Origin: Elusimicrobiota bacterium
GTDB lineage: Bacteria > Elusimicrobiota > Elusimicrobia > F11
Assembly: GCA_022072025.1 (NCBI GenBank)
Contig: JAJVIP010000017.1
Span: forward strand, 53,462 to 117,461
Length of the DNA: 64,000 nt
Reading direction: 5' to 3'
Positions 35,581-59,522 of the stretch are shown in pieces. The translations under genes and the position numbers were made by a program. Every line of letters starts with the position of its first letter. Positions within the stretch are counted from its first letter, which is position 1. The notes below the pieces were generated by a model. That model did no database searches and had not been told where the DNA came from. It worked only from the letters and a program-made list of their open reading frames with translations.

Positions 35581-35738
35581 TCACACCTCCTTTGAAGTCC
35601 GTTTGAATCTACATCCGATAGCCTATAAATTCCATTGTTTTTGAAGGAACTTTCACCACATCAAATGTGCAAAACGTCACGTCCCAAATATACAAGAATA
35701 TTCTGGAAAGCTATGAAATTCACATATATATTCATTTC

Positions 35739-38297: not shown

Positions 38298-38790
38298 ATC
38301 CAACAAAGGACAAAAGGGCACAACTCTTATCGAATTGATGATTGTCGTATCGATATTGGGAGTTATCGTCATGCTAGCCCCCAATTTATACAAGCAGGTC
38401 CGGCGTTTCTTTTTTTTGAATAGCGCGAAAGTTGAACTTCAGCGGGAAGCGCGTTCTGTGATGGAGCTGGTTACACGGCGATTGCGGCAAGCGAGTTCGA
38501 CAACGTTGGTGATGGATCAAGCAAGCGGTCAACCCTATTATTCAAGGATTAGGTTTACCGACATCGACTCAAATACGAACGTTTATTATCAGAGTGGGAA
38601 GAATCTCGTAATGAGCGTCAATGGTTCGACAAGAACCCTAACATCCAATTTGCGATATCTCGCTTTTGCATTGCCACGCTCGGATGATATGAACATTGTT
38701 TCAGTGGCTTTGACACTTGAAAAATCAACATACGAAGGCCAAACCAAAGCGCTCCATATGGCCTCGGAAAAGGTTAGGTTAATCAATTAA
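38287..38790 (+). CDS. Prepilin-type minor pilin/pseudopilin
   Basis: KG|TTLIELMIVVSILGVIV N-terminal methylation motif. 167 aa. Overlaps the upstream gene by 11 nt. Confidence 0.65.
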   Translation: MLFKSNKGQKGTTLIELMIVVSILGVIVMLAPNLYKQVRRFFFLNSAKVELQREARSVMELVTRRLRQASSTTLVMDQASGQPYYSRIRFTDIDSNTNVYYQSGKNLVMSVNGSTRTLTSNLRYLAFALPRSDDMNIVSVALTLEKSTYEGQTKALHMASEKVRLIN

Positions 38791-40196
38791 TGAAAAACAA
38801 ATCGAAAGGATTCGCGTTACCAGCCGTCTTGGCGATCATGCTCGTGTGCATGGTTTTATTGCCAGCTCTTGTTATGTGGATGCAACAGGACATGAAGATG
38901 GCAGTGAAAACCCAGAAGACCAGTCTTGCTTTTAATCTGGCAGAAGCAGCGGTTGATCGGGGCATGTGGAAACTAAAAAGCTCGAGCTCGACATTTGCGC
39001 AGGCAGCCGCTGGAACGGTTATTACCGGTTATAACTTTGACACAACCTATGTTGATGTCGCGGGCGGCACTTACCGGATTAAATTTTCGTCCGGCCCGGC
39101 CGCGCGGCAAGTCACTATTTGGGGTGAGGGACGTGACGCGGCAAACAATGCGACTCGTTCGGTCCAAATGGTGGTTCAAAATCAGACTATTTACAGTGCT
39201 TTGATGGCGGGAGGAAACACCACATGGGCCAAAGGACTTATTATTTTTTGGGGGCCGATTATCTCGCAAGGCAACATCGCAATCCAAGATGATATTGTTG
39301 GAGGAATCTACTACCCTCAAAAGTACGCAAAAGGCACGGTGATCGGAACTGCTACCAATCCAAGAGATACAAATGGACCGACCCCACCGAACACAGACAA
39401 CACAGAGTGGTGGTCTCAATATGAGGGTGTGCCCGATGTTCCTGTATTGGATTTCGCCTCATTACGGTCCTCAGCGGCGGCAACAGGCACGTTAAACGTT
39501 TATGGATGCCGATCTACCCAAGGAGGGGCTGGCACCAACAACAGCGCGACTGCGTGGGACACTCGCGCATCATGTACCGCCTCCGGAGCGCATGCCACCC
39601 ATTTTGGCAATCCATGGTGCCATCCGAAATCAGCCCGAAATCAACCCAACAACAGCTATGTATGGTATTGGGACGGAGACGTCACTTTAAGTGGTGGAAG
39701 CAGCGCCAATCAAAGTTGCGGACTCCGTGGCATGGTGATAGTCCGAGGGAATTTAACCATCAACACCCCTGGCGAATATAAGTACACGGGCCCGGTTCCG
39801 ACAAACGCATGGCAACAACACAAGAAATTCACAAAGACTACTTATGATACATCGTCATCAAGTCAATACCCTGCTGATACTGGTCTTAACTCCTCCGCGT
39901 CCACTTTTTCTTTTGGCACGACTGGGTTCGGCGTTCCAGGATTGGGAACTGGTCCTTACCAATGTACGGTTGGTATCAGGGGTTTTACGTATGTAGGCGG
40001 AAACTTAAGCATCCTCAATTATATGGACTTCAATGGAGCCGTGTGGGTCAATGGAACGGTTTCGTCCAGTGGCGGCACCTTATCAACTTCTTGTGGAATA
40101 TTTTACGATGAAACATTAGATGTCCCGGCCCTGAACGTAATTCTCGTCCGTTCGTCGTGGAATGAAGTCACTCCGAGCTCTTCCCCATGGTTATAA
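38790..40196 (+). CDS. PilX-like minor pilin (N-terminal PilX domain) with a large variable C-terminal region
   Basis: The KGFALPAVLAIMLVCMVLL hydrophobic N-terminus resembles PilX_N. Start overlaps the upstream stop. Confidence 0.5.
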   Translation: MKNKSKGFALPAVLAIMLVCMVLLPALVMWMQQDMKMAVKTQKTSLAFNLAEAAVDRGMWKLKSSSSTFAQAAAGTVITGYNFDTTYVDVAGGTYRIKFSSGPAARQVTIWGEGRDAANNATRSVQMVVQNQTIYSALMAGGNTTWAKGLIIFWGPIISQGNIAIQDDIVGGIYYPQKYAKGTVIGTATNPRDTNGPTPPNTDNTEWWSQYEGVPDVPVLDFASLRSSAAATGTLNVYGCRSTQGGAGTNNSATAWDTRASCTASGAHATHFGNPWCHPKSARNQPNNSYVWYWDGDVTLSGGSSANQSCGLRGMVIVRGNLTINTPGEYKYTGPVPTNAWQQHKKFTKTTYDTSSSSQYPADTGLNSSASTFSFGTTGFGVPGLGTGPYQCTVGIRGFTYVGGNLSILNYMDFNGAVWVNGTVSSSGGTLSTSCGIFYDETLDVPALNVILVRSSWNEVTPSSSPWL

Positions 40197-40653
40197 GTGA
40201 TAAGTGTTCTTTTCCATTTCCGCTATCTTCTAAAAGGAGCTTTTTTGATCCAACATTTTTTCCTGTTTTTCTTCGGAAAATGGGCAAGATGCTTACAGTT
40301 TTCGCCATCACGTCAGCGTTGGGTTATACGATGAGTTCGAGTTGGTATAAGGCGGCAATTCGTGAAAATGGTTACGATGATCCAGAGGTCACCGCGAGAG
40401 AAATGGTGAATCACAAAAAAAGTCAGATGGGCTTCTCTCGGCGTTTTTTACTCCACGAGCTCGCTCCAGTCCTGATCTCCTGGTGGAACTTCAGGTCTGG
40501 AAGCAGGATTGCTCGGCAAATTGTTCAAATCCCATTGCGGCGATTCAAAGGGATTTCGATATAGGACAGATGCGTATGGCCAAACGATTTGAAAAGGTCG
40601 CCGTTGGGGAAACCACTCAATTGAAGCGCGGTTAAATAGAGGAACAATTCGAC

Positions 40654-45046: not shown

Positions 45047-45433
45047 ATGAAAAAACGGCACAAAATTCTCATTGTGGATGATGAAGAAAACATCGCCTCT
45101 TCTATGAGTGATCTTCTGGAAATGAAGGGATACGAAGTCAAAAGCGCCAACAATGGCGTCGAGGGGCTCAAAATTTTGGCAGATGAACCCATCGACTTGG
45201 TTCTTTTGGATCTCAAAATGCCCCGCATGGACGGTTATATGTTCATGGAACATTTAAAGGAACGCTGGGAAAATGGAGACAAACGATTTCCGCTTCCCCA
45301 AATTATTGTGATGACGGCCGTAGACAAAAAAAATGATCTGGGTTTGGCCAATAATCTCGGGGCCGTTGAATATTTAAATAAACCTTATAAATCTGACGAT
45401 TTGTTGTCCCTTCTTAAAAAACTACTGAAATAA
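45047..45433 (+). CDS. Single-domain response regulator (CheY-like)
   Basis: ILIVDDEENIA...LVLLDLKMPRMDG receiver motifs. Confidence 0.8.
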   Translation: MKKRHKILIVDDEENIASSMSDLLEMKGYEVKSANNGVEGLKILADEPIDLVLLDLKMPRMDGYMFMEHLKERWENGDKRFPLPQIIVMTAVDKKNDLGLANNLGAVEYLNKPYKSDDLLSLLKKLLK

Positions 45434-45504
45434 TCCTCCTCTCGCCTTCATAAGATCACTTGGCTGTCATCGGTTTGTCGATGATTCCCTGCTATTTTGA
45501 CCCC

Positions 45505-45996
45505 ATGGAAAGACGAAAATACAAACGGTTCTCCGCGACAGCATTTTTAAACCGGCCGGTCACGCTAACTCCCGTTCCGCCTTTTTTTGGGAAACCCATC
45601 AAGGGTAAGTTGATCGATTTGTCTGCTGGAGGACTCTCCATGCTGATTCATCAAATTATTCCTCAGGGGACGCACTTGCAATTGACCCTCGTATTTCCAG
45701 ATCAAACCCGCTTAGAATGCGAAACTCAAGTGAAGCACATGCTTCCCCGGGACCGGAATTATCTACACGGATTTGAATTCCTCAACATCGATCCATCATG
45801 GGTTACGCGAATCAATGATATGTCCTCCCACTTCATTGACTGTGAGCGCCGTATTCAATCGGCTGACATCAATCCCTGCATTGGAAGCCAATGCGCTTTT
45901 TTTAACATGTGCAACAAACAAGAACGAGTCAACCTCCTTGTCAACATCGATGACGAATTGCTGCTGAACTTGGCTGTTTTAGAATTTCACCGTTAA
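45505..45996 (+). CDS. PilZ-domain protein (putative c-di-GMP receptor)
   Basis: RRKYKRF...DLSAGGLS matches the PilZ RxxxR / D-x-S-x-x-G pattern. Confidence 0.55.
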   Translation: MERRKYKRFSATAFLNRPVTLTPVPPFFGKPIKGKLIDLSAGGLSMLIHQIIPQGTHLQLTLVFPDQTRLECETQVKHMLPRDRNYLHGFEFLNIDPSWVTRINDMSSHFIDCERRIQSADINPCIGSQCAFFNMCNKQERVNLLVNIDDELLLNLAVLEFHR

Positions 45997-47342: not shown

Positions 47343-47463
47343 TCAACTGGATTGTTTTCCTCTAGGATTCAGATAAAGTACTTGCGCTGAATCTCAAGTC
47401 CACTTAAGTTTGAGACGTATGCACCTCCGTCACAAACCTAACCCGCCGTTCTTGGGAAAAGTG

Positions 47464-49143
47464 ATGGCCAGTTTGGCTGTTATGACCATTTCTTTTTCTC
47501 TTCTCTCCCCATCTCAAGCCGCCCCGGTTAAAAAAAACAAAACATCTGATGCCGCTAAAGTGTCCGAGAAAACAGAAGCAGGTGAGACAAAAGTTCCGGG
47601 GAAAATTGAATCCGTTACCCGCAAAGTCGAGGTCTTTAGAGCAGGATCAAACGGATGGAAAAAAGCCCAAAGCAGCACACCTCTTTCTCCGGCCGACAAA
47701 ATAAAAACCGGCACCCGATCTGTGGCCCGAGTCAAATTGGCTGATGGGACAAAAATTTTACTGCTCCAAAATTCCCAAGCGGAAGTGGAGAAACTTTCCA
47801 GCGTTCAAAAAAGCATCAAACTCCTCAAAGGACGTATTCGCGCCATCGTTTCAAAGATGAAAGGCGGTAACAATTTCCAGATAAACACCCCCGTGGGCGT
47901 GGCCAGTGTTCGCGGGACTGATTTCGAAGTAAGCGTCGAAGGAGATGAAAAATCACCTCAAATGCAGGTCTCGGTGAATGAAGGGCAAGTGGGGGTTTCT
48001 AAATTGGGGGATATGTCCCAGGAAGTGGTGTTGAACGCAGGGGAAAGCATTAAATTTGGGTTTGAAGGAGATATGGGAACCCCCATCCGATCAGGTTCTC
48101 TCCCTGGGGACCGAGACACGGTGAGAACGGAGATTCAAATCGCCAAATCCAAAGAGGCGATGCTGGCCATGGCCGCCGAAGAATCCCGCCAAGCGGATTA
48201 CCAAACCGGAAAATCATTGATGGATGTGGACGGACAACGGGTTCGAGTTGAGGAATACATTATGCGTCCCCGCGCCGATCAATTTAAATTGGTGGTTCTC
48301 AATGAGCGCCCTGAACGATTTGACTACTTCACTTACAAAGGAACCTTCAACACCGACCTCCCTGAAGATCTCTCCATTGCGCTTGGACAAGTGGCTGGAA
48401 AAGTGGGAGCCACCGCTCCTGATTATTATTTGAGGGAATATGAAACCGTCGCCTCCAACACAGTGGATACCGTTTCCGATTCCGCTTCGGGCGGACATTT
48501 GGTGAAGATAGATTTCGATGGAACCAATTACACCCTGACCGATAACGAAGATGCCACCAACACGCGGGTCGTTGAAGCGGCCGCCTTACAGCCTGACGGT
48601 TCGTATAAAATTTACAACCCCATTCGCGATTCATTTTCTCTTGTTTCCGCCGCCAATAAAACAGAGGCCTTAAAAGTTGGGGTGGTCGATGGCGGAAACT
48701 ATCGCAATCTCACGGGGGGCGACACCTACTGGAAAACCCGGTTTAACACGTACGCAATGTTCGTGAACAGCACGGGAAAAACCGCCTATGAAAAGAAAGG
48801 CAGTGTCACCAACACGCTCGCCGTCGATTTGGACGCGAACTTCTCCAATGCCCCCATCACCTCCATAACGGAATTTCCCGATGGAACCAGTCAACTCCAC
48901 AATAAATTGAGCCTCTTCTACGCGGACGGATCAAAATTGGTCTATGACAATTACATCATCGATGACGAAGGGAATATGGTTCCTGCGTCCACTTTCAACG
49001 GGATATCAACAAGCGCTGAATATAAAAACATTTTGGACACTTTAAACTACCAACAAAACATCACTGCCACCGAAATGGGATCTCGGTCCATTCGATTGGT
49101 CATCGATCCGCGAATTGGAACCAAATCGGGGTTGATCCAATAA
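47464..49143 (+). CDS. Secreted FecR-domain protein
   Basis: Signal peptide MASLAVMTISFSLLSPSQA. FecR-like block ADGTKILLL...GVASVRGTDFEVSV. Confidence 0.5.
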   Translation: MASLAVMTISFSLLSPSQAAPVKKNKTSDAAKVSEKTEAGETKVPGKIESVTRKVEVFRAGSNGWKKAQSSTPLSPADKIKTGTRSVARVKLADGTKILLLQNSQAEVEKLSSVQKSIKLLKGRIRAIVSKMKGGNNFQINTPVGVASVRGTDFEVSVEGDEKSPQMQVSVNEGQVGVSKLGDMSQEVVLNAGESIKFGFEGDMGTPIRSGSLPGDRDTVRTEIQIAKSKEAMLAMAAEESRQADYQTGKSLMDVDGQRVRVEEYIMRPRADQFKLVVLNERPERFDYFTYKGTFNTDLPEDLSIALGQVAGKVGATAPDYYLREYETVASNTVDTVSDSASGGHLVKIDFDGTNYTLTDNEDATNTRVVEAAALQPDGSYKIYNPIRDSFSLVSAANKTEALKVGVVDGGNYRNLTGGDTYWKTRFNTYAMFVNSTGKTAYEKKGSVTNTLAVDLDANFSNAPITSITEFPDGTSQLHNKLSLFYADGSKLVYDNYIIDDEGNMVPASTFNGISTSAEYKNILDTLNYQQNITATEMGSRSIRLVIDPRIGTKSGLIQ

Positions 49144-49161: not shown

Positions 49162-50376
49162 ATGAAATCTCGTGTTCTCTTGTTTATCTTAGCTTCAATG
49201 CTGAGCCATATATCCATGGCTGGCCCTCAATACATTCCAGTCATCAACGGTCTTTTCACAACGGGACAATGGTATTTTGAAGGCGATAAAAGTGAGTTGG
49301 GTGGAAATGCCGCGATCACGTTCGTTCCTGCCCTCAAGTACTCCGATAAATTCACACTGATTCCTACTGTACAAAGCTATTACCATGGCACACGCACCGC
49401 GGAAGAGTTGGCGGGGGGAAATACTTTATTTCAAGATACCTGGGACAATGGCATCGGAGTCAAAGCTGTCCATTCATTGAATGAAAAATGGAACATCAAG
49501 GAAAATATAGGCGCTCGTTTTAAATGGTTCCGTGAGACCACCGATGAACGATGGACCCATGGACTCTATGATTACCGAATTCTTAATGCGGGCTTGGAAG
49601 CGGAACGAAAGTGGGGGAAAAAAACCAGCATCGCGGCGGGGTATGATATTTCTCTTCTCCAATTTCCCAACTATGTTTCCTTGGAGTCCAGTCAAAGCGA
49701 GGATCGTTCCAGAGAATATGCGGGTGAAAATGTTCTCGATACCCGCAGCCATCTTTTTTCCCTTCGGATCAAGGCCCCGCTTTTTTGGGGACTCTCCACC
49801 TCACTGAACTCATTTTTAACCCCTCGATATTACACCGATCAACATGTGGTTCAATTAACAGGTCTTTTGTCAGCCACAACACGAGATGACCTTTTTTCCA
49901 GCAACACCCTCTCGATCGATCGGGTATTTACCCTCTTTCGAAAAACGAAACTCATCTCGACCGTTATCGTTGGACACAACAGCCTCGATTCCAATCAAAA
50001 CCATTATGACGCCAAGCAAACTTACTTCGCGGCCAACTATTACGACTACGATCAAAATATCGCTGGTCTCCAAATGAACTACGCCTTTGGCAGCAAAATG
50101 CAAAGTCCCATGCTGATCAACTTGGGATACAACTATTCTCATCGCAACTACCGTTCTAGAACCATCCAAGACGCGGATGGAGCCTATTTGAATGAAAAAC
50201 TCTATTTGATCGAACAAGCCATTAATCTTGGTTTTAGTTATCCGCTTGCAAAAAATTTCAGAGTCAAAATGTCCACCACTTTTGCCCAAAGCAAATCCAA
50301 CAACAATTTTGAATCACTCTATCGATACAACTATCACAACTCGGAATATCAATTTGGATTCACTTATGATTATTAA
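49162..50376 (+). CDS. Outer-membrane beta-barrel protein of unknown function
   Basis: Signal peptide. Tyr/Gly-rich alternating strands. C-terminal aromatic ...FGFTYDY. Good RBS GAGGGG. Confidence 0.45.
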   Translation: MKSRVLLFILASMLSHISMAGPQYIPVINGLFTTGQWYFEGDKSELGGNAAITFVPALKYSDKFTLIPTVQSYYHGTRTAEELAGGNTLFQDTWDNGIGVKAVHSLNEKWNIKENIGARFKWFRETTDERWTHGLYDYRILNAGLEAERKWGKKTSIAAGYDISLLQFPNYVSLESSQSEDRSREYAGENVLDTRSHLFSLRIKAPLFWGLSTSLNSFLTPRYYTDQHVVQLTGLLSATTRDDLFSSNTLSIDRVFTLFRKTKLISTVIVGHNSLDSNQNHYDAKQTYFAANYYDYDQNIAGLQMNYAFGSKMQSPMLINLGYNYSHRNYRSRTIQDADGAYLNEKLYLIEQAINLGFSYPLAKNFRVKMSTTFAQSKSNNNFESLYRYNYHNSEYQFGFTYDY

Positions 50377-53300
50377 TAAACGGAGTTTAACCGGTTTAAT
50401 TTTAAATTTATCCCTACTCGCTGTGATGGCTCATGCAACTCCCTCTGACATTGCCGATTTAACAGCCACGACGGGTTCAAACCCCGGCACAGTGACTCTC
50501 AATTGGTCCGCCCCCAACGGCGGAGCCACTCGGTACATCATCAAATACGCTCCAAGTTCCTCTTTAATTTCAACGGAGTCCCAATTTTTATCCGCCTCTC
50601 ACATTGAGGCGCCCCCCATTAATGCACAAGCGCCAACGCCAGCCAGTGGGGGTTCACCCGAAACGCTGACGATATCAGGATTACAGAACGGGGTCGTGTA
50701 TTCATTCTCTATTAAATCGGAGGACAGCAGTTTGATTCGCTCCAATCTCTCCAATGGGGCCACCGCCATGGCCGCTGTTCCTTGCGCTGCGAACGCCAAT
50801 GACGGAAAAGGAAGCGGCGCCATTCTTCCAGCTTCTATCCCCAAAGGACAAGTCGTTCTAACCACCGTCACTTTCACGGTGGACCCGGCCGGAATCGGGA
50901 CCGGAGGAAAAATCTCTCTCCAAGTCCCAGATTTTTTCCCTTTTTTGAGCACCGCCACTTCGAACCAAGAATCCTCTGGATATATTTCTTACACCCACAC
51001 GGGAGGAGCCAACTTGGTTGTTTCCTCTCTCAGTGAACAAGTCATCACATTAAAAGTCGACTCGGGAAGTATGAGCAGCGGTGACCTTGTGAAATTCTTC
51101 ATCTATGCTCACATCTGTTATACCGGGAACAATTCATCCCTTCAATTTCGATTGGCCTCTCAACAAGGAAGTTGCGGAATCCTCAGAGAAATTGCCAGTC
51201 AACCCGTTGTCTCAATTACAAATGGGGGCCCCGCCTTTATTGCGTTTGACCCTTATGAGATTGTGGCGAAGGTCGATGCCATCACCTCTTTCAAAGTCGT
51301 TTCTTTTGATGGATGTGGATATCCAGTCAACTTGTCTCAAACAACAGCCTTTACATTGGAAACCTATCGATATGATTCGAATTCCTCCAATTATATTGTG
51401 GATAGTAACGCATCTCTTTCACTCTCTTCAGATATGTCCTCTTCAAACACCAACATTGGATCTGACATAACCAGCGGGCAATCGGAGAGAACCGCTTACT
51501 ATCGGATCACAACGGCCTCGGCCAAACCCAACTATATTGTATTGACCTACGATGATTTAACTCCACCTCACAACTCCATCTCCTATATCGCTTCAATTGT
51601 TCCACTCACTGTTGGAATTGCGTCAAGTTCAGTCGATAAAGGAACTCTCAATCAAACTCAAAAAACAGTCACCTTTGATCCAGGTAAAAATGAACGTGTT
51701 TATTTCAACTTTTCACTTCCCGAAAATCTTTCCTGGAAAATCATGATATCGAGCAATGGTTTTTCCTCTTTCACCTATATTATTTATGGGAATGGAAAAA
51801 ATGTTCGCACCTCCTGGGATGGGTATGCGGATCCGTCCCCGGGGGAACCTCCGCAAATTGCTCCAGCAGGAACCTATTCCATACGGATACAAATTGGGCC
51901 GGACATAAAAGATGAAACCTGTTCCGTGACTCTCCAATCAGCCGGCATTCAAGGGACGTTGGTAAAAGCGGGGACAGCAACCGCATTGGAAAACGTCGAT
52001 ATCGAATTTTTTGGACCCACGCCCCGCTACACCCGCTCTCGGACGAATGGAACCTTTGAAACGGGAGGGCTCAACTCAGGATCTTATAAGGTTCGGTTCT
52101 TTAAACCTGGTTATATTTTCAAGGAGGTTAATGCGACCGTAACTTCCGGCAACTCAACCAATTTGGGAACCGTTGAACTGACCGAAGCGGCTATTTTAAG
52201 GCTTTATTTCAGCCGTTCAGCTTCTGGCAGTCTGCCGGATATCAATGGATCAGTGCGTGCCTACAACTCTGATTATTCCAAACAATCCTTTGGGTCCGTT
52301 CGGTTTAGATCGGGAAGCACCACTTCAGATGCCGGCGATGATTGGAACTCGACTCCCACTCCTTATACCGACTTATATCTCGAACAAAATGTGGCCTATT
52401 CAGTCCAGGTTGAAATTCCCGGGTTTGCTCCCCTTACCTTCAGTAACACATTAACCTCCGCGGGTGTTACCACCAGCACTCCAACGTTGACGACAAAACC
52501 CACAATAGAGGGGACCGTAACCATTCCAGCGGGGGGGAATGCCCAAGGTCTTTGGATCTCTGTTGAAGCCGCAATTGATGCAAACGGAGATTTAAGTCCG
52601 GACTCTACGGATCCCTCCAACCGTTTATACGGTGGCAGCTATCTTCCACCCAATGAAACCACGGGAATTTACCGTGTTTTCGGATCGACCAATGCCAAAT
52701 ATGTGCTAACGGCATTTGCGCCGGGCTTCGTCCAGAGAAAAATCAATGTCACCGTCAATGGAAGCGATGTCAACAATGCCAATTTCCCCATTTTCAGCGA
52801 GGGGGGAAATATCTCAGGAACAATCACAGTGAATGGAGACTCCACCATTCTTGATGGCGATGACAACGATGGAAAATTTGAAATCCCCATCAATGCCTAC
52901 TCACCTTCAACCGGACGAGGTAGTTTCGCACAGATTGAGCTAAATGAAAATGCGTCCTCCACCAGCGGCGCATACCAATTAAAAGGACTGGAGGATGGAA
53001 TTTATAACGTCTCGGTTTACCAGTCGGGGTTTGGGTTGGTCCCCCCTGGACCCAAAAGCGTAACGGTATCCGGAGGAACCGGGACACTCAATCTCACTTT
53101 GGAACGCTTCAGCGGACAATTCACTGGGACCCTGACCTTGCCGACAGGCCAATCCAATTATGGCACTGTCGAAGTCGATGCCCTGTCGTTTAATCACTTT
53201 GGACAAGGAAGTCTGACTGGCGTCATTTCAGGGAACACCTATACCATCAGCAATCTCGGAACAGATTTTTACACCATTCGCGCTCGCTACCCCACGACAG

Positions 53301-56300
53301 GTTTGGTGGTCACCACCCAAGGGCAAGTTAAAAATGGAAGTACCACAACAAAGAATTTAGATTTATCAGGCGCCACCTATTCGGTCTCCGGCCGCGTCAC
53401 CTCATCAGCCAGCGCGCCGTACACACTTTCCTTTATTGTGAACAGATCCACTCCCACCCAAGCCTATACACCTTCGGGACCAAGCACCCTTAATGCCAAT
53501 CGAATAACGGCTCAAAGACTTCGCAACCGAGACTTTAATGATGGGGGCGGTGGCCCCAGTGGTGGGATTTTCTATGACCCCAAAGAATCATTCATTGGGT
53601 TCTACAACGCCAATGGAGATTACAGCATCAATGGACTCGCGGAGGGTTCGTATCGCCTGACCACAAACGGGGAAATGGATGGCGATCTTTCCAATGGGAA
53701 TGAAATCAGCAAATTGAACAAGGTTTTGTACGTGGGTCAAAATATGACCGGACAAAATTTCAACCTGACCGATGGATACAAAATCAGCGGTACGATTCGC
53801 GTTGCCAGTGGCCAATCAGAATCAGGCCGGAGCTTGAATGTTCAGGCGAGAGATAGTGAAGGGTCAACGGTCGCCCAACAATTTATTTATCTCTCGGGGA
53901 CTTCCGCTGAATTCTCTTTGACCCACATTCCACCAGGACAATATGTGGTAACGGTTTCAGATACCTATCCGAGAAAATATTCCTCTAAGGATCTCCAAGT
54001 TGAAATTATTTCCTCCGATATTTCCAACAAAGAGATCAGCTTGCTTAATTCGGGAATTATCCGAGGAAAATTACAAGTTAAGAAGTCCGGTATTGTTATC
54101 TCGGCCGCCAACTACTCTCAATATCTTTCCGAATCTTTTCGAATTGAAGCGAGAAGCAACCCTTACATTCCAGGTGGTTTTGGCCGAGCTGAAAACCCGA
54201 TCATTGACGCGAATGGATATTTCAATATCGCGGTCAATCCAGGGACTTACGACGTGGTATTGGGATTGGATGGAGGGATATCGGATTCCGATATCGCGCA
54301 AGGAAAAAAAGCCTTCGTTAATGTGACCAAAAGCGCCATTTCAGTCTCAGGAGGAGAAATCAAGGATTTGGGCGTGATTCCCCTTGATGAAGGAATTGAA
54401 ATGACCGGGACGGTGGTGGACGCCTCCGGCACGCCGCTCTCCAATATTCGGGTCGAAGCTGAAAAATCAAACCAATCCGGTCACAACGATGAACTTTTGG
54501 AAACCTTCACTGATTCAAACGGAAAATATGTGATGAGAGGAATCGATTCAACGGGAGCGCGTTATTATCATTTCTTTGCCGCGCCTCGTCCTGATCCATT
54601 TGATCAACGTTTCAGTGGGGATACAACAGCCTCCCGCTATGCGGAATCGATCAAAGGGCCGATAGATACTCAGAGCGTAACCGAAGTCAATTTCACACTT
54701 TCTTTGGCCAATAGCGGGATCACTGCCACCATTACCACCGCCGACTCAGGCGTTCCCCAGGTTCCCTTTGGTGAATCGGGGTCTCTACCTGGGGCCATCG
54801 CGATCCTCAACAAACAACCTGAGATTCCCGTCGATAACCCACTGGGAAATATTGAAGAATTTGTGAGTCCCAGCGGCACCCTCGATGTTAAAGGGCTGGC
54901 AGCGGGTGTTTATGATCTCTACATCCTGGCCAAGGGATACGGCAGCTACTCAAAGAAAAACATTTCAGTTTCGGAAGGGGAAACCGTTGATTTGGGGACC
55001 ATTGTTCTTCCCACGGGATACACCCTTTCAGGAAAATTGACAAAACCCAATGGAGACCCGGTGACCACCTCTGATGTTGAGGACATCATCGCGGCCAGAA
55101 ATAATTTCAACGAAATAGCCATTGCCCAGTTGGATCAAGATGCCTCCAACAACATCATCAAATACTCCATATCGGGCATTCAACCCAACAAGGCCTACTC
55201 GATTATTGGATTTGGTCGATCGAATTCCGTGAGCAATTTGGCCTCCGATATCACGTTAACATCGGACACGGAATTGGATCTTACTTTTGAAGCACCCGCC
55301 CCGGGTGTACTCAACCAAATTGTCAAAAATAACGATGGTAGTTTCACCTTGTTATTCAAATTTGAAGAAACGTTGAGGAATTCGGACATCGACATTTCCG
55401 GAACAATTGGAATTAAAGACGACAATGAAATTCTTTCATTGACATCAGGAAACAGCGCTCTTGGAGAAACCACCATTTCATCGGACAGAAAGGAAGTATC
55501 GACCACCTACACACCTGCTGGAGGAGAAACTTCTTTCACCCTTCGTGTAACCGCCACATTTGTTTCCCAAGACAGCGAAACCGGCGCGAATCAAACCATC
55601 GACACCACCTTCACCTTTTATGCCGGCGTGTCCAAACAAAACAGCGCCACGGTGAGCAATGCCAGCGGAGGCGAGGTGGATTTGTCACAGGCCAACGATT
55701 CCACGAGTTTCACGGCTCCGGCCGGATGGCAAGGAGAAGATGAAGACAGCGCTCCGCAAGTCACCTTGAAGGCCGCAGCAACCCAAAGCGAGTTGGAGAC
55801 CTCGGCCTCCATGGTGGGATCCAAACTGGGCGCGTTGAGGGTGGCTGAGAAATTGGGGCTTCATGCCTACCCAAGTGAGATGGCCAAAGCCATGTCCAAA
55901 CTCAAAAAATTGGACGTTTCACCTCTCAGCTCGTTCTATGACATCTTTTTACCGGCGGGCGTCAGTCACTTTTTCCCTGAAGGAAAAGAAGCGCGACTCT
56001 GTTTGAGTTACGACTCCAGCGCCACTGATCCCTATTCGCTGAACGTTTATTATTACAACTCAACCACCGATGAATATTTATTGGAGAGCGAAAACAAATC
56101 GGTGGATACGGTTAACGAAAAAATTTGCGTCAGCATATCCCACGCGTCCATCTTCACTGTTTTAAATTCAAGCGTTTCCATCATCACCGGAGATGGTTAT
56201 TCCGGAGAGTTATCGATAATTAATTTCCCCAATCCGTTCAATTTAAAATCGAAAACCGTGACCCTTCAAAACCCCGGTTCCGCCAGCGCGTCACAGGTGA

Positions 56301-56548
56301 TCGATGGAACCATGATCAAACTGAGCGTTCCCACCACCATTTCCGGGACGGCTGAAATCAGCATTTTCGATGTCACCGGCGCCCTGGTAAGAACAATAAG
56401 ACACAACGTCACCGGCGGTTCTCATTATTATCTGGAATGGGATGGACTCAACGAGCGAGGGCAAAAGGTCGCCTCCGGCACGTACATTGCGCGCTTAACT
56501 GTTGGTGGCGGGAACGAAAAATTCTTTAAGATGGCGGTGCTCAAGTGA
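50366..56548 (+). CDS. Giant cell-surface protein (about 2060 aa): Fn3, multiple CarbopepD-regulatory-like/Ig-like domains, and a C-terminal T9SS type-A-like sorting domain (Por_Secre_tail-like)
   Basis: Signal peptide LAVMAHA|T. Fn3-like TVTLNWSAPNGGATRYIIKYA. Repeated GxV.D..G.PL....V.. units. C-terminal NFPNPFN...ISIFDVTGALVRTI...WDGLNERGQKVASGTYIARL...KMAVLK. Confidence 0.7.
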   Translation: MIINKRSLTGLILNLSLLAVMAHATPSDIADLTATTGSNPGTVTLNWSAPNGGATRYIIKYAPSSSLISTESQFLSASHIEAPPINAQAPTPASGGSPETLTISGLQNGVVYSFSIKSEDSSLIRSNLSNGATAMAAVPCAANANDGKGSGAILPASIPKGQVVLTTVTFTVDPAGIGTGGKISLQVPDFFPFLSTATSNQESSGYISYTHTGGANLVVSSLSEQVITLKVDSGSMSSGDLVKFFIYAHICYTGNNSSLQFRLASQQGSCGILREIASQPVVSITNGGPAFIAFDPYEIVAKVDAITSFKVVSFDGCGYPVNLSQTTAFTLETYRYDSNSSNYIVDSNASLSLSSDMSSSNTNIGSDITSGQSERTAYYRITTASAKPNYIVLTYDDLTPPHNSISYIASIVPLTVGIASSSVDKGTLNQTQKTVTFDPGKNERVYFNFSLPENLSWKIMISSNGFSSFTYIIYGNGKNVRTSWDGYADPSPGEPPQIAPAGTYSIRIQIGPDIKDETCSVTLQSAGIQGTLVKAGTATALENVDIEFFGPTPRYTRSRTNGTFETGGLNSGSYKVRFFKPGYIFKEVNATVTSGNSTNLGTVELTEAAILRLYFSRSASGSLPDINGSVRAYNSDYSKQSFGSVRFRSGSTTSDAGDDWNSTPTPYTDLYLEQNVAYSVQVEIPGFAPLTFSNTLTSAGVTTSTPTLTTKPTIEGTVTIPAGGNAQGLWISVEAAIDANGDLSPDSTDPSNRLYGGSYLPPNETTGIYRVFGSTNAKYVLTAFAPGFVQRKINVTVNGSDVNNANFPIFSEGGNISGTITVNGDSTILDGDDNDGKFEIPINAYSPSTGRGSFAQIELNENASSTSGAYQLKGLEDGIYNVSVYQSGFGLVPPGPKSVTVSGGTGTLNLTLERFSGQFTGTLTLPTGQSNYGTVEVDALSFNHFGQGSLTGVISGNTYTISNLGTDFYTIRARYPTTGLVVTTQGQVKNGSTTTKNLDLSGATYSVSGRVTSSASAPYTLSFIVNRSTPTQAYTPSGPSTLNANRITAQRLRNRDFNDGGGGPSGGIFYDPKESFIGFYNANGDYSINGLAEGSYRLTTNGEMDGDLSNGNEISKLNKVLYVGQNMTGQNFNLTDGYKISGTIRVASGQSESGRSLNVQARDSEGSTVAQQFIYLSGTSAEFSLTHIPPGQYVVTVSDTYPRKYSSKDLQVEIISSDISNKEISLLNSGIIRGKLQVKKSGIVISAANYSQYLSESFRIEARSNPYIPGGFGRAENPIIDANGYFNIAVNPGTYDVVLGLDGGISDSDIAQGKKAFVNVTKSAISVSGGEIKDLGVIPLDEGIEMTGTVVDASGTPLSNIRVEAEKSNQSGHNDELLETFTDSNGKYVMRGIDSTGARYYHFFAAPRPDPFDQRFSGDTTASRYAESIKGPIDTQSVTEVNFTLSLANSGITATITTADSGVPQVPFGESGSLPGAIAILNKQPEIPVDNPLGNIEEFVSPSGTLDVKGLAAGVYDLYILAKGYGSYSKKNISVSEGETVDLGTIVLPTGYTLSGKLTKPNGDPVTTSDVEDIIAARNNFNEIAIAQLDQDASNNIIKYSISGIQPNKAYSIIGFGRSNSVSNLASDITLTSDTELDLTFEAPAPGVLNQIVKNNDGSFTLLFKFEETLRNSDIDISGTIGIKDDNEILSLTSGNSALGETTISSDRKEVSTTYTPAGGETSFTLRVTATFVSQDSETGANQTIDTTFTFYAGVSKQNSATVSNASGGEVDLSQANDSTSFTAPAGWQGEDEDSAPQVTLKAAATQSELETSASMVGSKLGALRVAEKLGLHAYPSEMAKAMSKLKKLDVSPLSSFYDIFLPAGVSHFFPEGKEARLCLSYDSSATDPYSLNVYYYNSTTDEYLLESENKSVDTVNEKICVSISHASIFTVLNSSVSIITGDGYSGELSIINFPNPFNLKSKTVTLQNPGSASASQVIDGTMIKLSVPTTISGTAEISIFDVTGALVRTIRHNVTGGSHYYLEWDGLNERGQKVASGTYIARLTVGGGNEKFFKMAVLK

Positions 56549-57459
56549 AGCGCTCCACATGGGGATTGATCCTGCTGCTTTTTTCTGCCCCATGTTTTGC
56601 GGTGGACAACAACGCGGGAACCAGTGGAGCGGCCTTCTTGAAAATCGGAGCGGGAGCCCGACCCACCGCCATGGGAGACGCCTTCGTGGCCATTGCCGAT
56701 GACGTGAACGCCCTTTATTTCAATCCAGGCGGACTGGCCCTCCAAGAGCAAAAAGAATTCACTGCGCTGCATACCCAATATCTTCAAGGACTCAATTACA
56801 ATTTTGCGGCGCTAAGCATCCCCACTAAAAATGGAGGTTGGGGAATTTCAGGTGCCACTCTTCAGACTGATGATATTGACCGTCGAGGCTCGGATGAATC
56901 GCTTACCGGATCTTTTCAAAATCAGGACGCTGGTTATGGACTCACTTATGCCCACAAAATAGGGGAACACAGTGGATGGGGGGGAACTCTCCGTTGGGTC
57001 AGGTCTGAAATTGACAATGCCTCTGCCTCTTCTTGGTCGGCCGACCTTGGAATCTTTAAACGATTTGAAAACAATCCATTAACCTTGGGGCTGGCCGTCA
57101 AACATATGGGGCAAAAATTAAAGTTCATAGAAGAAAGCGATCCGCTTCCGCTGACTATTGACGGTGGGGTGGGATATCGCCTTTTCAATGATAGATTCAC
57201 CATGGCCACCAATCTCAAAAAATCCCGCGATCGTAACTTAGAATTCGGACTGGGCTTTGAATGGCAAGACGCGGTCGCTGACAAGGTCCGTTATGCCACG
57301 CGCGTGGGTTTTAATGGAGCCAACACCGACGCTGAGGGGGCCAATGGAATCACATTGGGAGCAGGATTGGGCTATCGACAAATGGATTTTGACTTTGCCT
57401 GGGTCCCCTTTGGAGATCTTGGAAACACCTTCCGATACGCCGCCCACTTCAAGTTTTAA
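56545..57459 (+). CDS. FadL/TodX-like outer-membrane beta-barrel protein (possible PorV/PorQ-type partner)
   Basis: GTGA start/stop overlap with the giant gene. Signal peptide. The N-terminal GAGARPTAMGDAFVAIADDVNALYFNPGGLA matches the FadL-family GRAxSGEGAIADDAxNVSRNPA pattern. C-terminal F. Confidence 0.5.
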   Translation: MKRSTWGLILLLFSAPCFAVDNNAGTSGAAFLKIGAGARPTAMGDAFVAIADDVNALYFNPGGLALQEQKEFTALHTQYLQGLNYNFAALSIPTKNGGWGISGATLQTDDIDRRGSDESLTGSFQNQDAGYGLTYAHKIGEHSGWGGTLRWVRSEIDNASASSWSADLGIFKRFENNPLTLGLAVKHMGQKLKFIEESDPLPLTIDGGVGYRLFNDRFTMATNLKKSRDRNLEFGLGFEWQDAVADKVRYATRVGFNGANTDAEGANGITLGAGLGYRQMDFDFAWVPFGDLGNTFRYAAHFKF

Positions 57460-57491: not shown

Positions 57492-59522
57492 ATGGCCCTG
57501 GGGAAACCGATAAAAATATCCATTGCTCTTCCTTTGTTGATGCTCTTTGGTTTCACTGTTTGGGCCTCCTCCCGGCGCCCAGCACCCAAGCCATCTGATC
57601 ATAAAGAACAGCAAACTCCCAAATTAAGCTCGGAGGAGTCCGCTTCCGCTTCCACCTCTATGCAGGGGCCTCCTTCCGCCTACACCTCTCCTGTGATGCC
57701 CACGGGCGGATGGCCGGAATTGGCGATTTTTATTGCGGTCCACCCGGAAGGAAGCGCGGGAGATATCCTCGAATTTCTTGAAAACCAACCCAACCTCAAC
57801 CTCACCCTTATTTTTCCGCCTTCTTATTTCAACAACGAAACAAACCGCGATTTGTTAGGCGAATTTTCTCTTCGCCAAAGTTCAAAAACCCTAGAGGTGG
57901 CCCTTACTTTAGAGAACGAACCCAATTTGCCCCTATTGGACAATTTGAGTAACGCTGGAAACACCGTTCAAAAATGGGGTTTCAACTATGCCTGGCCTGA
58001 AGACGTGGCGGCGCAAATCGCCCGGGGAAGCGCTCGATATCAAAAAAGATGGGGGCATCTGCCTTCCGGTCTAACCCCACCCTATCTCAGTCTCACCGAA
58101 TCCGTGGTGAATACGGTAAAGAAATTTAGATTGAATTGGGTTTTGGGACGTCCCCAGGATCGGTGGGGAATTCGATTTTATGGAGGGACGACGCTGGTGA
58201 TTCCGCCGAAACCTCCCACCATTGATGAATTGACGCTGGGTGGAAAAGTATGGGCAGAAAAAATGGCGGATTGGACCTTGGGTTATCCATTTGTGTTCAT
58301 TGACACCACACAACTCGAAGATCCCAAAGCGGAAATTTATTACCTAGAAGAGGTCGTAAAAAAAATCACCCCCAAAAAACCTCAGCGGTTGTTCTTAACT
58401 GCAGAAACCTGGACTCAATCTCTGGGAGATGCTTTTGATCTTCCAAAAGATATCACCCCCTTTGAAAATGATTTTTCTTCTTGGGTCACATCCTCCCAAC
58501 AAAGACGCGCGTGGGCGGCTATTGCTGATGCGAGATTGGCCATCGAAACCTATCAAAAATCAGGACGAGCCAATCTGCAGAGACTGGACGCGGCCATAGA
58601 AGAAATGGCCAACGCTCAATCAGGCGAATTTTTACTCCGTTTGGGATCGATCGCTCCTCCCACAGGGCCTCTTTCAGACCGTCCGGTTGATGAACGAAAT
58701 TTCCTGGCAACACTGGGCAATGTTTACCGTCTTTGTGAAACGGCTGTTCCATCCAATCTCAACACCTGGTTTGCCACTCGATCCGCCATAAAGTCAACTC
58801 CCAAATCGGATTCAATGGAGGGCCCTTTTTTCATTGAAGGCCCCAACAGCCTCACCTGGAATGATTCCAAAAACGACGACGATGGAAATGGCAGTTACAC
58901 CTATCCCGTGGGCCCCTATCCCAAAGGAATGTTTGACTTAAAAGAATTAACTCTTTCTTGGAACGATGAAGAAATTAATATCACGGCCAGTGTTCAAGAA
59001 CCTTTTCTCGGAAAACCCCTTTCCGTTCTTCCGGCCATCGATCTCTATATCGATGTCAATCGCCTCCCAAACGCCGGCAGCACCAATGGACTGGGAGGTC
59101 GGGGAAAAACAAATACCGCTCGAGAGGCGGCCTGGGAATATGCCGTGGCGTTTTCGCCTCGCTCCGCGACGATCTATCAGTCCATCCCAGGAGAGTCGCC
59201 ACGAACGCTGGGTAAAAAATCGGTCGACGCCAGCGGGAAAAGTTTTTCAACCACTTTCCCGCGATCCCTTTTAAGAGGAGACCCAAGACAATGGAGATTC
59301 TCAGCTGGGCTCATGGGCATTGAGAACAGTCAAAAACAAGAAACACCGACTCCTGTTTCAATTGTCTACAACGCCACAGAAAAAAATTTTGGGGGCGCTC
59401 AAATCAAACAATCGGCGCCTTATATCGACATCCTCTCACCCTCAATTGAGGATCAAACAGATCGAATGAAGAGTCATTTTGAGGGGGGGCCCCTCAGCCT
59501 GCCGTTCGTTGAGGCTCAGTAG
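57492..59522 (+). CDS. Secreted protein with a glucodextranase-like C-terminal domain (likely a polysaccharide deacetylase/GH57-type enzyme)
   Basis: The C-terminal DDDGNGSYTYPVGPYPKGMFDLKELTL...IDLYIDVN resembles the glucodextranase C-terminal binding module. The N-terminal catalytic part is not identified. Confidence 0.4.
   Translation: MALGKPIKISIALPLLMLFGFTVWASSRRPAPKPSDHKEQQTPKLSSEESASASTSMQGPPSAYTSPVMPTGGWPELAIFIAVHPEGSAGDILEFLENQPNLNLTLIFPPSYFNNETNRDLLGEFSLRQSSKTLEVALTLENEPNLPLLDNLSNAGNTVQKWGFNYAWPEDVAAQIARGSARYQKRWGHLPSGLTPPYLSLTESVVNTVKKFRLNWVLGRPQDRWGIRFYGGTTLVIPPKPPTIDELTLGGKVWAEKMADWTLGYPFVFIDTTQLEDPKAEIYYLEEVVKKITPKKPQRLFLTAETWTQSLGDAFDLPKDITPFENDFSSWVTSSQQRRAWAAIADARLAIETYQKSGRANLQRLDAAIEEMANAQSGEFLLRLGSIAPPTGPLSDRPVDERNFLATLGNVYRLCETAVPSNLNTWFATRSAIKSTPKSDSMEGPFFIEGPNSLTWNDSKNDDDGNGSYTYPVGPYPKGMFDLKELTLSWNDEEINITASVQEPFLGKPLSVLPAIDLYIDVNRLPNAGSTNGLGGRGKTNTAREAAWEYAVAFSPRSATIYQSIPGESPRTLGKKSVDASGKSFSTTFPRSLLRGDPRQWRFSAGLMGIENSQKQETPTPVSIVYNATEKNFGGAQIKQSAPYIDILSPSIEDQTDRMKSHFEGGPLSLPFVEAQ

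Follow-up and report, generated by a model that had tools for sequence, protein, structure and literature searches.

Organization of the gene cluster

The 64-kb stretch of an Elusimicrobia metagenome-assembled genome (MAG) contig analyzed in this study (the window; locus tag KCHDKBKB_02210 in an exact-sequence look-up; all coordinates are window positions) carries five closely spaced genes, all on the + strand, between 47419 and 59522 (Table 1). Two of these genes are our main subject. One encodes a giant secreted protein of 2,060 amino acids (aa) that ends in a C-terminal sorting domain (CTD) of the kind used in type IX secretion systems (T9SS), and the other encodes an outer-membrane barrel of 304 aa that belongs, judging from its sequence, to the PorV/PorQ family. 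Both features lie where the first-pass annotation of this DNA had placed them. As discussed below, we lean towards the view that the two proteins are a cognate pair of cargo and barrel.

The genes are tightly packed. An 18-nucleotide (nt) gap separates the FecR gene from the gene of the 404-aa barrel, which overlaps the giant gene by 11 nt. The giant gene in turn overlaps the gene of the 304-aa barrel by 4 nt, and a 32-nt gap follows before the gene of the 676-aa protein. At the junction of the giant and the 304-aa barrel (ctcaaGTGAagc), the GTG start of the barrel shares two bases with the TGA stop of the giant in the sequence GTGA. This agrees with the translational coupling suggested by the first-pass annotation. 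With heuristic start calls, the exact 4-nt overlap was found again at 10 of 51 junctions of other pairs from related loci, and 24 of the 51 junctions measured 30 nt or less. A promoter and terminator scan of the region 46.5–60.5 kb returned fewer sites than shuffled sequence and was uninformative, and hence the operon structure is read from gene spacing alone.

Table 1. Features of the gene cluster, with their positions in the window and the supporting profile matches. The start of the FecR gene was taken from the existing gene call in locus L001.
Feature	Position	Strand	Profile matches
FecR-domain protein, 574–577 aa, with a signal or anchor at the N-terminus; leading gene of the cluster	~47419..49143	+	Pfam FecR, 65.8 bits
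Orphan outer-membrane beta-barrel, 404 aa, ~16 strands, without plug; signal peptide; ends in ...FGFTYDY	49162..50376	+	
Giant secreted protein, 2,060 aa: signal peptide, fn3, at least 6 CarboxypepD_reg, C-terminal sorting domain	50366..56548	+	
CTD of the giant protein, 108 aa, T9SS type-A/FlgD-Ig class, apparently of the long PorZ/PorU-like subtype	56222..56545	+	TIGR04183, FlgD_ig
PorV/PorQ-family barrel, 304 aa: signal peptide aa 1–19, predicted plug ~aa 25–70, predicted 14-strand barrel aa 71–303	56545..57459	+	
676-aa protein, weak GH57-like region and Glucodextran_C	57492..59522	+	Pfam Glucodextran_C, 61.7 bits; GH57, 19 bits

The C-terminal domain of the giant protein

The giant open reading frame (ORF) most likely starts at the ATG at 50366 and begins with the signal peptide MIINKRSLTGLILNLSLLAVMAHA. 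The body of the protein is built of fn3 and CarboxypepD_reg beta-sandwich repeats, in which our Pfam scan found no enzyme domain.

From NFPNPF to the terminal lysine (residues 1953–2060), the tail measures 108 aa instead of the 90 aa assumed in the first-pass annotation. The type-A landmarks can be read directly in the sequence: FPNPF, ISIFDVTGALV, ASGTYIARL and the C-terminal lysines of KFFKMAVLK. The tail thus contains all elements of the type-A motif, namely PNP, hydrophobic-x-I-x-D-x-x-G, G-x-Y and the C-terminal lysine. In isolation, it scored 26–28 bits with TIGR04183, the model of the T9SS type-A sorting domain (cut-off 23), and 31–33 bits with Pfam FlgD_ig (PF13860), which is above the gathering cut-off of 27. 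The whole giant protein reached only 16.9 bits with TIGR04183 (cut-off 23), and the match of the tail to Pfam Por_Secre_tail (PF18962; 13.7–23.1 bits) remained below the cut-off of 27. The top NCBIfam matches of the tail include the C-termini of PorU and PorZ. The type-B CTD model TIGR04131 gave no match to the tail at E ≤ 0.01.

A profile built from 73 CTD tails of related loci was searched against solved structures. It matched the CTDs of PorZ (5m11; E = 1.2e-14) and PorU (6za2; E = 1.9e-13), followed by structures of FlgD (E about 1e-7) and the cargo CTDs of F. johnsoniae (8glk, 8glj; E about 1e-5), while the cleaved CTD of RgpB was matched at only E = 0.14. The matches to PorZ and PorU take in the segment W-D/N-x-x-x-x-G-x-x-V/I-x-x-G-x-Y. 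TIGR04183 was matched at E ≤ 0.01 by 67 of the 73 tails, and weak type-B matches were seen in 10 of the 73. Residues P15, P17, G65, G98 and Y100 are near-invariant across the 73 tails. A lysine close to the C-terminus is conserved as well, with the consensus GKxAxxK. It is the counterpart of a near-invariant lysine of CTDs that contacts PorV (PMC10994853).

The CTDs of PorU and PorZ, which are not removed, are 108 and 96 aa long, respectively, and have an extra hairpin after strand 5, whereas the processed CTDs of cargo proteins have 67–88 aa (PMC11285876). With 108 aa, the window CTD falls in the range of the non-cleaved CTDs (96–108 aa). Overall, the tail reads as a real type-A-class CTD of the long PorU/PorZ/FlgD-Ig subtype. 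The first-pass annotation had described it as canonical type A. The class assignment is supported by TIGR04183 and by the motifs, but the term canonical does not apply, because the domain is 108 aa long, is borderline on the generic models and comes closest to the PorZ/PorU/FlgD-Ig subtype. No other CTD proteins were found in the 64-kb window.

The 304-aa barrel

The 304-aa protein starts with the signal peptide VKRSTWGLILLLFSAPCFA and ends in ...HFKF, a C-terminal beta-signal typical of barrels. It scored 155.5 bits with the NCBIfam model NF033709 ("PorV/PorQ family"; cut-off 90), and coverage was complete, with residues 26–304 aligned to positions 1–326 of the 326 positions of the model. The Pfam family UPF0164, known from Treponema, was also matched above its cut-off (23.9 versus 21.4 bits). 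The scores with the two equivalog models were below their cut-offs, at 91.8 bits for PorQ (NF033711; cut-off 220) and 66 bits for PorV (NF033710; cut-off 250), the latter covering the N-terminal two thirds only. The PorP/SprF model TIGR03519 gave no significant match (E = 0.11; 11.9 bits versus a cut-off of 90.55), whereas a profile of 45 barrel sequences matched F. johnsoniae PorV (6h3i_F) at E = 6e-20.

The AlphaFold2 model of the barrel (pLDDT 88.9, pTM 0.84) has a helical N-terminal segment at residues 25–70 followed by 14 strands, as counted from the DSSP string. Its extracellular loops are very short, with 2–11 residues. Foldseek returned PorV (8gl6_F and 6h3i_F; TM-score 0.74) as the top matches, with FadL and TodX next. 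The model is in line with the FadL/PorV fold foreseen by the first-pass annotation, in which the N-terminal segment would form the plug. The FadL-type N-terminal signature that it had pointed out (GAGARPTAMGDAFVAIADD...NPGGL, with the NP(A/G) element) is indeed present, and conservation within the family is highest there (consensus GTSGAQFLKIGAGARPTAMGEAFVGVADDVNAVYxNPAGL). Other conserved residues of the barrel are R114 and D117, which form the tip of the S3–S4 hairpin, and the segment D199-P200-x-P202 is invariant.

Compared to F. johnsoniae PorV, which has 402 aa, the barrel is ~100 aa shorter because of its short loops. This confirms the length difference noted in the first-pass annotation, but the difference disappears within the barrel's own subfamily, where the model has 326 positions and relatives mostly have 300–320 aa. 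An exhaustive profile search retrieved 29,450 cluster representatives at E ≤ 1e-3, of which 4,779 reached E ≤ 1e-30, and most of the top matches were again 300–320 aa long. The idea of a truncated FadL was therefore rejected: the barrel is a full-length member of a family in which ~300 aa is typical, and it had no match to Pfam FadL/Toluene_X (PF03349) at E ≤ 1. One barrel homologue (P0007) carries PF03349. A minority of the PorV/PorQ-family representatives have 440–665 aa (e.g. P0211, P0257, P0277, P0316 and P0326), and combine an N-terminal barrel with a C-terminal extension of 150–350 residues. The genome of the window itself encodes a paralogue of the barrel (P0074; KCHDKBKB_00092).

Pairing across genomes and duplication of the pair

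When a single genome was scanned for each species, 556 relatives of the barrel were obtained, and the best 80 loci were analyzed. About 32 of these loci belong to Elusimicrobiota. The other hosts are Nitrospirota, Firestonebacteria, Desantisbacteria, Sumerlaeota and Armatimonadota, together with hosts of the Fibrobacteres–Chlorobi–Bacteroidetes (FCB) type, namely Cloacimonadota, Zixibacteria, Calditrichota, Krumholzibacteriota, Latescibacterota, KSB1 and Ignavibacteriales. CTDs were counted with jackhmmer, seeded with the window tail and run over all ORFs of the fetched loci. An earlier word-indexed search with a 119-aa tail had found only 13 fragmentary close relatives, and was uninformative on distribution.

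The census detected 78 ORFs with a CTD, and in all 78 the domain sits at the extreme C-terminus. For 62 of the 95 barrel ORFs, a CTD ORF of the same strand ends at most 1.5 kb upstream, in most cases no further than 150 nt away. The adjacency of giant and barrel is not due to chance. In addition, CTD distances and barrel distances were correlated across 52 pairs (Mantel r = 0.67, permutation maximum 0.17). In many phyla, most relatives of the barrel are paired with one CTD protein. The first-pass annotation had considered a barrel dedicated to a single cargo unusual. This expectation was not borne out, given the frequency of the arrangement and its precedents in PorU–PorV, PorZ–PorQ and the type-B CTD proteins with their PorP/SprF barrels.

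The upstream partners are diverse. In one Latescibacterota locus (L066), the partner is a true PorU (636 bits), which makes this a canonical porU–porV pair. Among the fetched loci, a PorU-like body was otherwise seen only in L080, L083 and part of L045, and none of these loci is labelled Elusimicrobia. A general identity of the partners with PorU was therefore rejected, as only 3–4 loci have a PorU-like partner. In four loci from Krumholzibacteriota and unclassified MAGs (L052, L064, L069 and L073), the partner is a protein of ~1,065–1,095 aa akin to the NCBIfam family "T9SS-dependent M6-like inactivated metalloprotease" (205–231 bits, below the cut-off of 600). These relatives of M6-like metalloproteases and their barrels are a second recurrent class of cognate pair. 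The remaining partners are unassigned proteins of 200 to >3,300 aa.

In the closest relatives of the window, two tandem cassettes of giant and barrel stand where the window has one (L002, 1–20921; L085, 1–20924, GCA_044221725.1 JBGAON010000003.1; L086, ERZ26871208 contig_60284). The gene order in these relatives is FecR, a 405-aa barrel, giant 1, barrel 1, giant 2, barrel 2. Giant 2 has ~3,460–3,490 aa and barrel 2 has 307 aa, and their junction is again a 4-nt overlap. Downstream, the synteny is identical to that of the window (GH57/Glucodextran_C, Cons_hypoth95, PDDEXK, AA_kinase, aminotransferase). Within the genome of one relative, identity is 63% between the two CTDs and 48% between the two barrels. 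Obscuribacterium likewise has two pairs on a single contig. The pair has been duplicated as a unit. Together with the conserved adjacency, this supports the suggestion of the first-pass annotation that the barrel is dedicated to the neighboring cargo. At L086 19537–20924 lies the beginning of a called gene of 13,046 aa, which extends beyond the end of the locus.

Annotation pipelines already have names for both families, and their pairing is real, conserved and widespread. The unusual point is the host, an Elusimicrobia MAG, which lies outside the FCB superphylum where T9SS are known. Neither of the outcomes named in advance by the first-pass annotation as speaking against its view was observed: the barrel is not a generic porin without a hatch, and CTDs are not absent elsewhere.

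A proposed cognate carrier and anchor for the giant protein

The explanation that we favor, by a modest degree of confidence, is that the giant protein and the 304-aa barrel form a cognate cargo–barrel pair of the T9SS sorting type, similar to PorZ–PorQ or PorU–PorV. The giant protein with its beta-sandwich repeats would be exported by Sec. Its 108-aa Ig-like CTD would then be recognized by the compact, plugged 14-strand barrel encoded directly 3' of it, and the GTGA overlap may ensure that giant and barrel are produced in step. The barrel would act as a dedicated carrier for the giant protein, and most likely also as its permanent anchor in the outer membrane, keeping it on the cell surface by means of an uncleaved CTD. 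Physical binding of the CTD by the barrel, retention of the CTD on the giant and surface exposure of the giant are presumed here by analogy with known pairs. PorV and PorQ serve as the anchors of PorU and PorZ, respectively (PMC12365241), and adhesins with a type-B CTD are held by adjacent PorP/SprF-like barrels (PMC9143113, PMC12618676).

Several points weigh against this explanation. We infer both the binding and the location of the giant protein. Shared descent is a confounder of the Mantel correlation. PorV grips CTDs with long extracellular loops, inside SprA (PMC10994853), while the loops of the modelled barrel are very short, and the barrel stays below the cut-offs of both the PorV and the PorQ equivalog. 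In P. gingivalis, the extra hairpin of the PorU and PorZ CTDs was reported to be functionally irrelevant (PMC11285876), and hence the similarity in subtype is no proof of CTD retention. Furthermore, T9SS have been reported only from Bacteroidota and their FCB relatives (PMC4793230, PMC11285876), and no T9SS core component was found among the ~50 larger window ORFs that were scanned. As a result, the translocation route is missing. The giant protein may cross the outer membrane through a SprA-type translocon whose gene lies elsewhere, or in another way. In the open-access literature, we found nothing that links Elusimicrobia to the T9SS.

Alternative explanations

A more far-reaching explanation is that the type-A-like CTD and the adjacent PorV/PorQ-like barrel constitute a stand-alone module for surface display, which is older than or independent of the T9SS of Bacteroidota, and which works without SprA or the GldKLMN motor in Elusimicrobiota, Nitrospirota and other non-FCB phyla. 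The attachment complex of the T9SS (PorU–PorV and PorZ–PorQ) would be a derived use of this module, and in the clade of the window the orphan 16-strand barrel and the FecR protein would supply the export step. We offer this explanation tentatively, as it seems doubtful at present.

A related but still less likely explanation is a system for export and anchoring that does not depend on the T9SS, where the 16-strand barrel and the FecR protein provide the passage through the outer membrane and the PorV-like barrel serves as receptor or anchor. Such a self-contained system would fit a phylum without described T9SS, and would account for the close packing of the FecR, 404-aa barrel, giant and PorV-like barrel genes (18, −11 and −4 nt) and for the gene order kept in the relatives L002, L004 and L006. 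However, the 404-aa barrel and the FecR protein occur only in a narrow clade of Elusimicrobia, whereas the pair of CTD and barrel spans many phyla. Moreover, the system has no POTRA domain or energy source, and 16 strands are few for the passage of a 2,060-aa protein, unless it is unfolded.

It is improbable that this genome has a complete but unreported Elusimicrobia T9SS in which the barrel acts as general PorV shuttle, serving many CTD cargos and located beside the giant gene incidentally. In favor of this explanation, the barrel is homologous to PorV, the tail passes the type-A model, and the canonical porU–porV pair in L066 (PorU, 636 bits) is adjacent as well. Yet, the barrel has only 66 of the 250 bits required by the PorV equivalog model. 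In the relatives, a single genome holds several paralogous barrels, each of which follows a CTD giant of its own, and PorU-like bodies are confined to the few loci mentioned above, none of them labelled Elusimicrobia. The lack of core genes among the scanned window ORFs and of reports of T9SS outside the FCB phyla likewise argues against a complete system.

Finally, it is very improbable that the barrel is a FadL-like channel which takes up small hydrophobic molecules and has no functional relation to the giant protein: FadL and TodX are the second-best structural matches, the plug has an NP(A/G) motif and homologues in spirochaetes have been read this way (Brachyspira preprint), but the Pfam FadL model (Toluene_X) found no match, PorV is the better match in both sequence and structure, and the adjacency to CTD genes (62 of 95, often overlapping) and the co-duplication would be left unexplained.

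Comparison with known systems

The closest parallel to the pair of giant and barrel is the attachment complex of P. gingivalis. There, a surface protein sits on a FadL-fold barrel of the PorV/PorQ family by means of a long type-A CTD that stays in place, as we assume for the window protein. The window CTD is best matched by the CTDs of PorZ and PorU, the window barrel scores nearer PorQ than PorV, and porU–porV adjacency is seen in L066. In contrast to PorU and PorZ, however, the window partner is a 2,060-aa repeat protein without a sortase domain or a domain for lipopolysaccharide delivery. The window barrel also differs from PorV and PorQ by its position below both equivalog cut-offs and by its much shorter loops. 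Furthermore, several pairs per genome occur in the relatives of the window, and in its Elusimicrobia host no SprA, PorK/L/M/N or PorU has been demonstrated.

Pairs of a type-B CTD protein and a PorP/SprF barrel, such as SprB–SprF and PG1035–PorP, also consist of one cargo and one barrel with linked genes. The PorP/SprF-like barrel is needed to secrete and anchor the large type-B adhesin (PMC9143113, PMC12618676). The window CTD, however, is of the type-A/FlgD-Ig class, with only 10 of the 73 related tails touching the type-B model, and the window barrel is of another family, as indicated by the E-value of 0.11 with the PorP/SprF model.

With the FadL and TodX channels, the window barrel shares a predicted barrel of 14 strands, a hatch at the N-terminus and a motif of the NP(A/G) type, in line with their second-tier structural match. 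It differs from them in having no match to their sequence family, in being ~100 aa shorter through the loss of loops and in its link to a CTD gene. Barrels from non-FCB bacteria, i.e. UPF0164 of Treponema and BP951000_RS08455 of Brachyspira, fall in the same named families (UPF0164 and NF033709) and come from phyla without T9SS. We found no linked CTD partner reported for these barrels, whereas the partner in the window is explicit and conserved. Two-partner secretion (TpsA–TpsB) resembles our locus in that a giant exoprotein is encoded beside a dedicated outer-membrane barrel. Yet, the signal of TpsA is an N-terminal TPS domain and not a C-terminal CTD, and TpsB is an Omp85-type protein with POTRA domains instead of a FadL-fold barrel, without homology to the window barrel.

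Research on the T9SS has assigned type-A CTDs to a single general shuttle, PorV, and has regarded the system as limited to Bacteroidota and related FCB phyla. For Bacteroidota, a single PorV is stated to serve all type-A CTDs (PMC12618676). What remains of interest in our results is that type-A-class CTDs occur with private PorV/PorQ-like barrels as cassettes that can be duplicated, including in phyla without a described T9SS. If the translocon and motor are absent from these genomes, the interaction of CTD and barrel would be the ancient core, and very large proteins would reach the outer membrane in a second way that is still to be found. If the core is present, the T9SS would have a wider range than stated. 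The pair also offers a compact model for the recognition of CTDs by PorV-family barrels.

Neighboring genes

The FecR domain of the first protein of the cluster resembles the Leptospira surface lipoproteins LipL45, Lsa33 and Lsa19, which are FecR-domain lipoproteins. The C-terminal ~380 aa of the protein are an uncharacterised region. A FecR gene upstream of the giant gene is kept only in the close Elusimicrobia relatives L002, L004 and L006. In L010 and L011, a homologue of the FecR protein is located 3' of the barrel and not 5' of the giant, and in L067 a FecR-domain ORF lies directly 5' of the barrel. For the 404-aa barrel, sequence searches returned no family and no solved relative, and fold searches retrieved generic barrels only.

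The 676-aa gene at the end of the cluster is syntenic in close relatives, and follows the last barrel in L085 and L086. In distant genomes it is not linked to the pair of giant and barrel. Whether the 676-aa protein is part of the system is uncertain.

A gene for a PilZ-domain protein is found near the cluster at 45047–45996, beside a stand-alone response regulator, and in Candidatus Obscuribacterium another PilZ gene (L004, 9736–10341) lies directly 3' of the barrel. These neighbors hint at control of the cluster by cyclic di-GMP, although they might also be a coincidence.

The first part of the window (1–34000) is mostly housekeeping, with FeoB, the alpha and beta subunits of 2-oxoacid:ferredoxin oxidoreductase, succinyl-CoA ligase, GlyQS, AspS, PanC, CoaX, RecO and PhoH, and none of its genes was seen to be a secretion-system core gene. 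It also contains two glycosyltransferases of the arsenosugar-type families TIGR04282/04283. An unusually large pilin-like gene set follows at 35667–40561, ~10 kb 5' of the cluster. This set includes an 876-aa protein that has both a prepilin N-terminal methylation signal and a CarboxypepD_reg domain, and continues with a 167-aa pseudopilin-like protein and two unknown proteins of 468 and 125 aa.

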